Shown here one piece after another: positions 12,189 through 16,034 of a stretch of 64,000 nt of DNA (position 1 is the stretch's first letter; each line of letters begins with the position of its first letter). The notes beneath the pieces are model-generated. The model did not search any database and had not been told where the DNA came from. It saw nothing but the letters and a program-made list of their open reading frames with translations. Both the position numbers and the translations under genes were made by a program. The DNA comes from Escherichia coli (GTDB lineage: Bacteria > Pseudomonadota > Gammaproteobacteria > Enterobacterales > Enterobacteriaceae), in assembly GCF_030384885.1 (NCBI RefSeq), contig NZ_CP128613.1; one strand, written 5' to 3'.

Positions 12189-12281
12189 GCTTTTTCTCCG
12201 CAATATTCAGGCGCAAAAGCCCGATTTTCTGTTCTTCTGTAACAAGACAGAAGAAGATATCTCTCAAATTTACTTTGGTCT

Positions 12282-14711
12282 TCATGAATACTTTTTCGTC
12301 CGTCGCGTCGGTGCGGTATTTGCCGGATCATCCGGCCAGACGTGTTTGGGATAACGCCCTTTCATCTCTTTTTGCACCTCGCGATACGCTCCTTTCCAGA
12401 AGGCGCTCAAATCTCGTGTGATTTGCAGCGGCCTTTGGGCAGGAGAAAGCAACTCCAGCACCAGCGGCACGCGCCCCTGGGCGATCGTCGGATTGGTGGC
12501 CTCGCCAAACATCTCCTGCATTCTCACCGCCAGCGCGGGCGGGTTATCTTCATGGTAACGAATGGCGATCCGGCTTCCCGTCGGCACAGTGTAATGCGCA
12601 GGCAATTCACTATCCAGACGTTGCTGCATCCCCCAATCAAGTAATCCGCGTAGCGCCTGATAAATATCGAGTGATTTCAGGCCGCGTAGCGAATGTACGC
12701 CTGTCATATGCGGCAGGAGCCACGTTTCCAGCGTCGCCAACAAACTTTCATCATCAACCGCTGGCCAGTCATATTCCGGCAACCACTTTGCGGCGCATAA
12801 CAAACGCAAGCGTAGCTGTTCCGCTTCCGCCGTCCAGTTGAGCACGCTTAAACCTTTATCACGAATGCCGTTAAGCATCGCCTGATGCAACTCGTCTTCC
12901 GAGGGTTTCGCCAGCGGCTGCACTTTCACCGTCAAATGACCGATTTGCAGCCGACGCCACGCTTTCAGCGTACCTTGCGCGTCATCCCACTCCACAGTGT
13001 CAGACTGCTGTACCAACTGCGGACAGCGTTGTACTAATTCATCGATATCGACCGGTAGCGCCAGTAAAATCCGCGCATCCGGCGAGGCGCTGCCCTGCAA
13101 TAATAACGGTGCGATCAACCATTCGTGGCGGCTGAGCGCATCATCGGCATCGAGCATTGCCCCCATGCCGTTTGCCAGTTGATAGCGCCCCTCTTGCCCA
13201 CGGCGGCGAGCGATGCGATCGGCAAACGCTCCGGCAAGTAACGGTGCGATAAGCGAACTGTCTGCCTCACCGCCGCGTACGTTTAAGCGCTTTAACAGTT
13301 GCTGGCTACGTTGCTGCCAGGCAGGTTGATTGCGCGAAAACGCCACGCCCAGATCGATATTGCCCATCCGTGGTGGCTCTTCGAGAATAGCGGCAATTTT
13401 TGCAGCGGTAGCAGCTTCGTCGTCGCTCTTTGCGCTCACCAGCATTGCCGCTAAACGCGGATCGTTACCCAGCGTCGCCATTTTCTGCCCTTTCGTGCTT
13501 AGCCGTTCACCGTCCATCGCCCCCAGCATCCGCAACAGGCGTTTCGCGGCCTGTAAATTCACGGCTGGCGGTTGATCCAGCCAGCTCATCTGCGTCGGAT
13601 CGCTGCATCCCCATTGCAGTAATTCCATCAGCAAACCGGAGAGATCGCTTTGTAATATTTCTGGTTCACTTTGCGCGGAGGCGCGTTCTGCTTGTTCTTT
13701 GGCGATTAAATGTAAACAGATCCCCGGCTCCAGACGTCCGGCACGCCCGGCGCGTTGCGTCATTGATGCCTGGCTAATGCGTTGGGTAATCAGCCGCGTT
13801 AGCCCCGTGCGCGGATCAAAGCGCGCCACACGTTCCTGAGCACAATCCACCACCAGACGAATACCTTCGATGGTTAAACTGGTTTCAGCAATATTGGTTG
13901 CCAGCACCACTTTGCGCATCCCTTCTGGTGCCGGAAGGATCGCTTTTCGCTGATCGTTCAGCGACAACGCGCCATACAGCGGGCAGAGCAACACATCACT
14001 ACCGATGCGCGAAGCCAGTTGTTCCTGAACGCGCTGAATTTCTCCGACACCAGGTAAAAATAACAGTAATGAGCCGCTTTCCTGATGCAGCAATTCGGCG
14101 GTGGCAACCGCCACGGCTTCATCAAAACGCTGATGAGCGAGCAGCGGTAAATATCGGCGTTCAACCGGAAATGAGCGCCCTTCTGAGATGACGACGGGCG
14201 CTTCTGGCAGCATCTGCTGCAAGCGGTCATTGTCCAGCGTAGCCGACATAATCAGTAGTTTAAGGTCATCACGCAGACCTTGTTGCACATCGAGTAACAG
14301 CGCCAACGCCAGATCCGCCTGCAAGCTGCGCTCATGAAACTCATCGAGGATCACCAATCCAACGCCGCTCAGTTCAGGGTCACGCTGGATCATGCGCGTC
14401 AACACGCCTTCGGTAACTACTTCCAGGCGAGTATTTGCCCCGACACAGTTTTGCGCGCGCATCCGGTAGCCTACCGTATCACCTGTTTTTTCGTTAAGCA
14501 GTTCCGCCAGTCGTTGCGCAACGTTACGCGCCGCCAGGCGACGCGGCTCCAGCAGGATAATTTTTCCGTTAATGCCGGGATGCGCCAGCAGTTGCAGCGG
14601 CAGCCAGGTTGATTTCCCGGCCCCGGTCGGCGCACTTAATAACACCTGCGGTGCACCATCGAGGGCAGCAAGTAACTCAGGTAAGACGGCGGCAACGGGC
14701 AACGACGACAC
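12282..14711 (-). CDS. hrpB: ATP-dependent RNA helicase HrpB (DEAH-box)
   Basis: Walker A PTGAGKST, DEFH box; GTG at 14711 with a GGAG 8 nt upstream gives 809 aa; the alternative ATG at 14756 has no Shine-Dalgarno. Confidence 0.9.
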   Translation of the reverse strand: MSSLPVAAVLPELLAALDGAPQVLLSAPTGAGKSTWLPLQLLAHPGINGKIILLEPRRLAARNVAQRLAELLNEKTGDTVGYRMRAQNCVGANTRLEVVTEGVLTRMIQRDPELSGVGLVILDEFHERSLQADLALALLLDVQQGLRDDLKLLIMSATLDNDRLQQMLPEAPVVISEGRSFPVERRYLPLLAHQRFDEAVAVATAELLHQESGSLLLFLPGVGEIQRVQEQLASRIGSDVLLCPLYGALSLNDQRKAILPAPEGMRKVVLATNIAETSLTIEGIRLVVDCAQERVARFDPRTGLTRLITQRISQASMTQRAGRAGRLEPGICLHLIAKEQAERASAQSEPEILQSDLSGLLMELLQWGCSDPTQMSWLDQPPAVNLQAAKRLLRMLGAMDGERLSTKGQKMATLGNDPRLAAMLVSAKSDDEAATAAKIAAILEEPPRMGNIDLGVAFSRNQPAWQQRSQQLLKRLNVRGGEADSSLIAPLLAGAFADRIARRRGQEGRYQLANGMGAMLDADDALSRHEWLIAPLLLQGSASPDARILLALPVDIDELVQRCPQLVQQSDTVEWDDAQGTLKAWRRLQIGHLTVKVQPLAKPSEDELHQAMLNGIRDKGLSVLNWTAEAEQLRLRLLCAAKWLPEYDWPAVDDESLLATLETWLLPHMTGVHSLRGLKSLDIYQALRGLLDWGMQQRLDSELPAHYTVPTGSRIAIRYHEDNPPALAVRMQEMFGEATNPTIAQGRVPLVLELLSPAQRPLQITRDLSAFWKGAYREVQKEMKGRYPKHVWPDDPANTAPTRRTKKYS

Positions 14712-14784
14712 AAAACGCTCCAGAGGGTTAACATTCTTCGCGCCACATTGTAGCATCGCGGTAATGCATAACCGAGTACCTCAC

Positions 14785-16034
<1,250 letters not shown>

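Follow-up and report, generated by a model that had tools for sequence, protein, structure and literature searches.

The genes hrpB and thpR are read away from each other in the stretch of Escherichia coli DNA that was analysed (the window, 64,000 nucleotides), and the locus raises the question of where two promoters can be placed between start codons that stand so close together. The preliminary description had put the hrpB GTG (14711) and the thpR ATG (14785) on opposite strands and 73 bp apart, which agrees with the sequence, the RefSeq annotation and K-12, and had concluded that at least one promoter must lie within the coding or leader sequence of the other gene. The evidence assembled here makes it very probable that the 73 bp between hrpB and thpR act as one compact bidirectional promoter of the sigma-70 type, the features of which are listed in Table 1.

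The hrpB product is a DExH-box RNA helicase of 809 aa, which displays the Pfam domains HrpB_C, CON_HrpB, DEAD and Helicase_C, while the thpR product is an RNA 2',3'-cyclic phosphodiesterase of 176 aa with the LigT_PEase domain, and each protein aligns along its whole length with solved E. coli structures (6HEG residues 1-809 for HrpB; 4QAK and 5LDI for ThpR). In the RefSeq annotation of strain 2013C-4282, which is 100% identical, hrpB occupies 12282-14711(-) and thpR 14785-15315(+), and the gap is likewise 73 bp in the K-12 annotation (thpR 161501-162031, hrpB 162105-164534). As read from the sequence, the thpR ATG at 14785-14787 is followed by TCT GAA CCG (M-S-E-P), and the hrpB GTG is followed by TCG TCG TTG (V/M-S-S-L).

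A GTG start for hrpB had also been proposed earlier, and it is borne out by the alignment of orthologues, by a GGAG upstream of the codon and by a mapped transcription start site upstream of it. In 54 of the 57 related loci the GTG stands at the position of residue 1, and it is invariant in 45 distinct sequences; CTCC, the complement of the hrpB Shine-Dalgarno sequence, is also invariant in the alignment, and the block that contains it (14717-14723) exhibits a mean major-allele frequency of 0.91. The longest hrpB ORF begins instead with an ATG at 14756, which would yield a protein of 824 aa, shorten the spacer to 28 bp and turn the GTG into an internal valine codon, and the ATG triplet is conserved in the alignment, yet it is hardly conceivable that this is the true start. 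Transcription begins at the mapped hrpB start site, 17 nt downstream of the ATG, so that the main hrpB mRNA lacks this codon; no Shine-Dalgarno-like sequence precedes the ATG, whereas the GTG has GGAG 6 nt ahead; and the frame of the ATG is lost in other genera, through a 1-nt deletion between ATG and GTG in the 72-bp spacer group and through a net gain of 4-5 nt there in the 77-78-bp spacer group. Its conservation is explained by the thpR -10, part of which gives ATG when read on the opposite strand. HrpB was also crystallised full-length as the 809-aa form (6HEG), though this reflects the choice of construct. Between the start site and the GTG, the hrpB leader contains no further in-frame ATG, GTG or TTG. 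Taken together, the hrpB start codon is settled as GTG rather than the ATG of the longer ORF.

Transcription start sites mapped in K-12 were transferred to the window by the relation K-12 coordinate = 176816 minus window position. By modified 5' RACE with deep sequencing, Kim 2012 detected 162077(+) with 92 reads and a 28-nt leader and 162053(-) with 19 reads and a 22-nt leader in K-12; Cappable-seq of K-12 likewise places the hrpB start at 162077(+) (score 21.3), and SMRT-Cappable-seq of K-12 places hrpB at 162076 forward and the beginning of the operons b0147-b0146 (thpR-sfsA) and b0147-b0146-b0145 (thpR-sfsA-dksA) at 162053 reverse. A ligT-sfsA-dksA-yadB-pcnB-folK operon was described by Conway 2014, and the transcripts headed by the thpR start site comprise thpR-sfsA-dksA(-gluQ-pcnB-folK). 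The homologous pair in Klebsiella pneumoniae was mapped by Kim 2012 at 171967(-) and 171989(+), 22 bp apart and with leaders of 22 and 29 nt. At the positions taken from K-12, the primary start sites of the window, 14739(-) and 14763(+), are 24 bp apart. The spacer differs from that of K-12 at two positions, both in the thpR leader, and because the promoter bases are identical to K-12, the window strain is expected to use the K-12 start sites.

The match of the elements to the sigma-70 consensus hexamers suggests dependence on sigma-70. At the centre of the spacer, ATTGTAGCAT (14747-14756, plus strand) harbors the hrpB hexamer TACAAT (minus strand) and the thpR hexamer TAGCAT (plus strand), and the TA at 14751-14752 belongs to both. 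For the thpR arm, a promoter scan returned one site (TTAACA-N17-TAGCAT) against 0.4 expected, and the -35 of this site (14728-14733) occupies the DNA of hrpB leader positions +7 to +12. For the hrpB arm, the TG of the extended -10 is located at -15/-14, one base before the hexamer (minus strand, 14755 to 14747), and a -35 sought at 15-18-bp spacers gave TCGGTT, CGGTTA and CTCGGT, which match TTGACA at 2 of 6 positions at most; with no recognisable -35, transcription from the hrpB arm probably depends on the extended -10. On its upstream side, the hrpB promoter reaches into DNA that also encodes the thpR leader. There are 195 copies of the bare motif A...TA...T in the window, with about 0.2 occurrences expected per 73 bp by chance, and because it is so frequent its presence in the spacer is no evidence by sequence alone.

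Table 1. Features of the hrpB/thpR divergent region, in window coordinates.
Feature	Position	Strand	Basis
hrpB CDS	12282..14711	-	ORF list; RefSeq annotation of identical strain; Pfam; full-length match to PDB 6HEG
hrpB start codon GTG	14709..14711	-	Plus strand cac, read directly from sequence
Divergent spacer with both promoters and both leaders	14712..14784	.	73 bp; sequence, RefSeq, K-12
hrpB Shine-Dalgarno GGAG	14718..14721	-	6 nt upstream of GTG; sequence
thpR -35 TTAACA	14728..14733	+	Promoter scan; 17-bp spacer to -10
hrpB primary start site (G), 28-nt leader	14739	-	Transferred from K-12 162077(+)
hrpB extended -10 TGcTACAAT (hexamer TACAAT 14752 to 14747)	14747..14755	-	Sequence; position fits mapped start site
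thpR -10 TAGCAT	14751..14756	+	Promoter scan; ends 7 nt before mapped start site
Upstream in-frame ATG, rejected as hrpB start	14754..14756	-	Reverse complement of part of thpR -10
thpR primary start site (A), 22-nt leader	14763	+	Transferred from K-12 162053(-)
thpR leader conserved block AATgCATAACCGAGT	14763..14777	+	Conservation 0.91-0.93
thpR CDS	14785..15315	+	ORF list; RefSeq annotation; Pfam; PDB matches
Equivalent of second K-12 hrpB start (161665+) with its -10, inside thpR CDS	15151..15163	-	Cappable-seq; SMRT-Cappable-seq; sequence comparison

A weak Shine-Dalgarno-like GAG was observed at 14774-14776, 8 nt before the thpR ATG. No terminator was found in a scan of 14300-15200, Rfam gave no match in or near the spacer (the sole match in the window, at 53678-53791, is the tp2 sRNA), and both leaders fold less stably than shuffles, with z-scores of +1.6 and +0.7. 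A small upstream ORF at the out-of-frame ATG 14734(-) of the hrpB leader was considered and rejected; this ATG is 5 nt from the start site, lacks a Shine-Dalgarno sequence and arises simply from reading the thpR -35 (TTAACAT) on the opposite strand.

Every core element (14728-14756) falls within 14712-14784, as do the two primary start sites, and neither promoter sits inside the ORF of its neighbor. The expectation that a promoter must lie within the coding or leader sequence of the other gene is correct as far as leader DNA is overlapped and incorrect for coding sequence: each promoter overlaps its neighbor only over the DNA of a short leader, 28 nt for hrpB and 22 nt for thpR. Start sites within the 73-bp spacer, which were found at K-12 162053(-) and 162077(+), had been named in the preliminary description as the observation that would count against its claim, and they are no true opposite of it because the promoters also overlap each other's leaders.

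The reading that two promoters do not fit into the spacer, with at least one gene transcribed mainly from within the coding sequence of its neighbor, draws on a second K-12 start at 161665(+), which is situated in thpR, 440 nt ahead of the hrpB GTG, and has a Cappable-seq score (20.1) near that of the proximal site; SMRT-Cappable-seq also reports b0148 from 161664, with full-length reads from there covering hrpB. This reading is nevertheless very unlikely, as primary start sites within the spacer are given by three independent K-12 data sets (Kim 2012, Cappable-seq for hrpB, and SMRT-Cappable-seq) and by Klebsiella, 161665(+) is unreported in Kim 2012, and the -10 of the internal site changes from TAATAT in K-12 to TGATAT in the window, as it does in each of the six related Escherichia loci. 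The K-12 hexamer is antisense to His-Ile-Thr codons, and a synonymous change removes its key A at the second position. The start at 161665(+) is a lineage-variable extra and no necessity of the geometry.

The divergent hrpB/thpR layout was detected in 5423 of 5426 complete E. coli genomes, with all 5423 at least 95% identical over the 85-bp query 14706-14790 that spans the spacer, and in 54 of 57 related Enterobacterales loci, 42 of which have 72-73 bp between the two genes. Chance does not account for the divergent arrangement. At 73 bp, the gap is the shortest of the six divergent gaps in the first 50 kb of the window, the others ranging from 108 to 354 bp. Differential conservation was observed along the spacer: the 10-bp core exhibits a mean major-allele frequency of 0.98 among 45 distinct Enterobacterales sequences, whereas the values are 0.62 at third codon positions in the genes on either side and 0.69-0.72 in the segments next to the core; the thpR -35 TTAACA shows a mean conservation of 0.92. 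Edwardsiella keeps TTAACA and the 17-bp spacing despite a spacer of 112-123 bp, and the core of Kosakonia, AGTATAACAT, has changed bases and retains both patterns, TGnTAnnnT (one strand) and TAnnnT (opposite strand), with the hrpB arm reading TGtTATACT, its TG retained. In five Enterobacter-type loci, an insertion of 5 bp moves TTAAC away from the -10, and the thpR -35 assignment is therefore not valid everywhere.

The conserved core and leader block might also represent the sites of a shared transcription factor that co-regulates hrpB and thpR, given that the block 14763-14777 and the bases around GGTTAAC are conserved beyond the apparent need of a weak Shine-Dalgarno sequence or a -35, and that GGTTAAC is kept even where the 5-bp insertion spoils the -35 spacing. 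Several observations make such a factor very improbable. The region is not spanned by any conserved inverted repeat, and its palindromes are limited to the 6-bp GTTAAC and an ATGCAT, which is strain-specific and has arisen by a single-base change; the Kosakonia core, where bases differ and both -10 patterns stay, is what would be expected of polymerase contacts and not of a factor site; and the leader block moves with the thpR ATG in the insertion variants, remaining beside that ATG and not beside the -10 core in loci L035, L042 and L049. The literature searched on hrpB/thpR regulation contained no regulator and nothing specific.

With the spacer as a bidirectional promoter, polymerase bound in one orientation would produce the thpR mRNA from 14763 with its 22-nt leader, and this transcript would run on into sfsA, dksA and beyond, as published full-length reads and RNA-seq operon maps describe. 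Polymerase bound in the opposite orientation would produce the hrpB mRNA from 14739 with a 28-nt leader, which would be translated from the GTG at 14711 by way of the GGAG Shine-Dalgarno sequence 6 nt upstream. The two binding modes would be mutually exclusive, because the start sites are just 24 bp apart.

The arrangement is real, conserved and ordinary, and its kind is already known; it carries little weight as a discovery because the start sites were already public for K-12 and Klebsiella and the class is very common. It demonstrates that a divergent gap of 73 bp suffices for two complete promoters and two leaders, and that the two-way promoter heading the dksA/pcnB operon is conserved across Enterobacterales, including Kosakonia with its changed bases, and hrpB/thpR could serve as a clean natural example for polymerase competition between housekeeping RNA-metabolism units. 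Since start sites 24 bp apart would allow one polymerase orientation at a time, the geometry may couple hrpB to thpR-sfsA-dksA-gluQ-pcnB-folK by competition or noise shaping, and both arms might answer ppGpp/DksA given the G+C-rich stretches between -10 and start in each (GTGGCGC and CGCGGT), although we consider this a speculative proposal with a rather small chance of being right. If true, it would represent competition-based or noise-shaping co-regulation of RNA-metabolism genes (helicase, RNA repair, DksA, poly(A) polymerase), and with a ppGpp/DksA response, some of the transcription of dksA would be subject to feedback by DksA through the upstream two-way promoter.

Among known systems, the hrpB arm resembles sigma-70 promoters with an extended -10 (TGn), as it has TGcTACAAT and no usable -35 (TCGGTT, 2/6), and would accordingly depend on its TG motif. 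Compact bidirectional promoters of other divergent pairs have start sites 10-23 bp apart and accommodate one polymerase orientation at a time, as hrpB/thpR would; those pairs mostly combine a regulator and its target with known factor sites, whereas hrpB and thpR both code for enzymes of RNA metabolism and no site for a regulator was identified. The closest likeness is to the bacterial bidirectional promoters of Warman, Forrest, Wade and Grainger, with their 23-bp configuration (bioRxiv 10.1101/2020.01.31.928960; NAR 2026, PMC12825309). About 19% of E. coli start sites are reported in bidirectional pairs in the literature on such promoters, and the text and supplement of the NAR 2026 paper (PMC12825309) contain no hrpB, thpR or ligT. 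The start sites of that class are 7-25 bp apart, a range that includes the 24 bp of K-12 and the 22 bp of Klebsiella, and its -10 elements lie on opposite strands with key positions paired symmetrically; at hrpB/thpR, both arms have the TA at hexamer positions 1-2 in common. The hrpB/thpR separation of 24 bp exceeds the ideal 23 by one, since the hrpB start is 8 nt, not 7, from its -10, and small departures of this sort are expected because the -10-to-start distance varies. Within hrpB/thpR the arms differ, one having an extended -10 without a -35 and the other a -35, and, like members of the Warman class placed between divergent protein-coding genes, the promoter gives rise to two mRNAs.

The divergent layout given in the preliminary description, with a GTG start codon of hrpB (b0148) at 14711 and an ATG of thpR (ligT, b0147) at 14785 some 73 bp apart, was confirmed by the sequence, by the RefSeq annotation of E. 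coli strain 2013C-4282, to which the window is 100% identical over the stretch compared, and by K-12, where the gap is also 73 bp (thpR 161501-162031, hrpB 162105-164534). The first codons are GTG TCG TCG TTG for hrpB (minus strand, 14711 to 14700) and ATG TCT GAA CCG for thpR (plus strand, from 14785). Each protein aligns over its whole length with solved E. coli structures, and Pfam places HrpB_C, CON_HrpB, DEAD and Helicase_C in HrpB and LigT_PEase in ThpR.

Features of the hrpB/thpR region in window coordinates
Feature	Position	Strand	Basis
hrpB	12282-14711	-	RefSeq annotation of 100% identical strain 2013C-4282
thpR	14785-15315	+	RefSeq annotation of 100% identical strain 2013C-4282
thpR -35, TTAACA	14728-14733	+	consensus scan
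thpR -10, TAGCAT	14751-14756	+	consensus scan; ends exactly 7 nt from mapped thpR start
hrpB extended -10, TGcTACAAT	14755 to 14747	-	sequence; ends 8 nt from mapped hrpB start
thpR transcription start	14763	+	carried over from K-12 162053(-)
hrpB transcription start	14739	-	carried over from K-12 162077(+)
Equivalent of K-12 161665(+) start with -10, antisense inside thpR	15151-15163	-	sequence comparison

Published start sites were carried over from K-12 by a gapless alignment of the hrpB/thpR region (K-12 coordinate = 176816 - window position), in which the spacer differs at two positions only, both within the thpR leader. Terminator-exonuclease enrichment combined with modified 5' RACE and deep sequencing mapped the K-12 ligT start to 162053(-), with a 22-nt leader and 19 reads, and the hrpB start to 162077(+), with a 28-nt leader and 92 reads (Kim et al. 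2012). The latter is also listed by Cappable-seq, and SMRT-Cappable-seq recorded full-length K-12 transcripts of b0147-b0146 and b0147-b0146-b0145 originating at 162053 reverse and of b0148 originating at 162076 forward. In window coordinates the two starts point outward, 24 bp apart, and both lie within the spacer. Homologous starts in Klebsiella pneumoniae are at 171967(-), with a 22-nt leader, and at 171989(+), with a 29-nt leader (Kim et al. 2012); the supplement of that study also gives, for NC_009648, a second ligT start at 171989(-), whose position is shared with the opposite-strand hrpB start and which could be an extra upstream promoter or a strand-assignment artefact. The genes ligT-sfsA-dksA-yadB-pcnB-folK form an operon whose primary transcription unit covers all six (Conway et al. 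2014), which puts the thpR arm at the head of a long operon.

The consensus promoter scan of 14300-15200 returned one site, on the plus strand, in which TTAACA and TAGCAT are separated by 17 bp. Its -10 hexamer and that of hrpB have the TA at 14751-14752 in common, giving a 10-bp core, ATTGTAGCAT (14747-14756), while the hrpB arm showed no hexamer resembling a -35 at spacers of 15-18 bp, the best being TCGGTT. When transcribed, the thpR -35 DNA becomes positions +7 to +12 of the hrpB leader, and the DNA upstream of the hrpB -10 becomes the thpR leader; the overlap is therefore mutual, in the leaders and outside the coding sequences. Just the far-upstream part of the polymerase footprint, judged from its general size, would touch the neighbour's first few codons. 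The contention that a promoter must lie within the other gene's coding or leader sequence thus stands for the leader and falls for the coding sequence; starts confined to the spacer, named beforehand as its refutation, were observed for both primary starts, and since these are compatible with promoter-leader overlap, the contention is partly supported. Both leaders folded less stably than shuffled controls, no Rfam match was found near the spacer, and no operator-like conserved palindrome was found in the spacer region.

Some 0.2 occurrences of the bare motif A...TA...T would be expected in any 73 bp, and the sequence by itself is therefore no evidence for the arrangement. A cross-species scan of Enterobacterales, in which a single genome represented each species, yielded 59 loci (57 scorable), with spacers of 73 bp (n=28), 72 bp (n=14) and 77-78 bp (n=5) and a few longer ones (112-123 bp in Edwardsiella, and 127 bp and 200 bp elsewhere). 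In a set of 45 distinct sequences, the mean major-allele frequency was 0.98 for the core, 0.92 for the thpR -35 and 0.91 for the hrpB Shine-Dalgarno block, and the hrpB GTG reached 1.00; by contrast, it was 0.62 at third codon positions in the two adjoining genes and 0.69-0.72 in the segments separating the promoter elements. In Kosakonia the core is replaced by AGTATAACAT or AGTATACCAT. The minus strand there still gives TGtTATACT (or TGgTATACT) and the plus strand TAACAT (or TACCAT), so the two -10 patterns, with the TA they share, outlast the base changes. Edwardsiella retains TTAACA, the 17-bp spacer and TAGCAT despite a longer hrpB leader. The 5423 E. coli genomes that match an 85-bp query containing the spacer (14706-14790) all do so at 95% identity or more, whereas over the 501 bp of 14500-15000 as many as 3861 of 5424 matching complete records show only 90-95% identity and just 18 reach at least 99%; the spacer is thus far better conserved than its surroundings, and the low 501-bp identity points to a minority lineage or an unusually diverse locus.

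In some genera, insertions separate the -10 core from the thpR ribosome-binding region, and these genera must have a different thpR leader or promoter. The 127-bp spacers belong to an Enterobacter sp. and Raoultella terrigena (L035 and L042, ~2874-3000) and the 200-bp spacer to Buttiauxella (L049, ~2801-3000), where the sequence apparently resembles an ERIC repeat. A conserved block of the thpR leader (14763-14777), with GAG 8 nt ahead of the ATG, keeps beside that ATG in the loci with insertions, and we therefore infer that it serves thpR translation initiation and not the hrpB promoter.

The longest hrpB-frame ORF starts at ATG 14756, 17 nt upstream of the hrpB transcription start and without a Shine-Dalgarno sequence; this ATG coincides, on the opposite strand, with part of the thpR -10, and indels between it and the GTG shift it out of frame in the 72-bp and 77-78-bp spacer groups. 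The GTG start proposed for hrpB is well supported by this broken frame, by the transcription-start position, by a GGAG 6 nt upstream, and by finding no other in-frame ATG, GTG or TTG between the transcription start and the GTG; in 54 of the 57 scorable loci, GTG is the codon that aligns with HrpB residue 1. Many E. coli genes start with GTG, and the hrpB start is thus unremarkable.

K-12 has a second hrpB start within thpR, at 161665(+), which Cappable-seq scores at 20.1 and from which full-length SMRT-Cappable-seq reads run across hrpB. The codons for the catalytic His-Ile-Thr motif, read on the antisense strand, supply its -10, TAATAT; a synonymous ATT-to-ATC change turns this into TGATAT in the window, as in each of the six related Escherichia loci, and so removes the key second-position A. 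The distal promoter is a by-product that varies between lineages and, judged from the hexamer, is probably weak or absent in the window strain.

Elsewhere in the window, the published K-12 mrcB start 164235(+) (Kim et al. 2012; Cappable-seq) corresponds to 12581(-), about 300 bp ahead of the hrpB stop; the K-12 mrcB leader is 495 nt and originates inside hrpB, and the window agrees with the 51-nt promoter sequence of Kim et al. (2012) except at the second base. The hrpB-mrcB intergenic region (12189-12281) is 93 bp versus 195 bp in K-12, where the hrpB stop is closely followed by an additional G+C-rich palindromic repeat, roughly 100 bp long, that the window strain lacks. A four-gene chaperone-usher fimbrial cluster (fimbrial protein, usher, chaperone, fimbrial protein) occupies 4444-9320 (-) in the fhuA-mrcB interval, and is presumably absent from K-12, judging by the consecutive numbers of mrcB (b0149) and fhuA (b0150). 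The sole Rfam match above the gathering threshold is the tp2 sRNA (53678-53791, +; 101.8 bits, full-length model), and yadE (30659-31888, -) is annotated in the identical strain as a pseudogene with an internal stop.

The hrpB/thpR arrangement is real, deeply conserved, already documented and of a known kind, and the pair was not found by name in the bidirectional-promoter texts and supplement accessible to search. Mutual exclusion of polymerases, together with the G+C-rich -10-to-start sequences, might speculatively tie hrpB both to the thpR-dksA-pcnB operon and to control by ppGpp/DksA; one polymerase binding event blocks the other at bidirectional promoters (2026 paper, PMC12825309). Such promoters are defined in bacteria by divergent starts 7-25 bp apart, with 5,292 such sites (19% of the E. 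coli total), and the favoured separation of 18 bp and other peaks including 23 bp each reflect a symmetric pairing of key -10 positions (Warman et al., bioRxiv 10.1101/2020.01.31.928960). The later study gives 18, 10 and 23 bp as common distances and attributes slight departures to a -10-to-start distance that is not always 7 bp (PMC12825309). The -10 configuration of the hrpB/thpR pair matches the 23-bp class of Warman et al.
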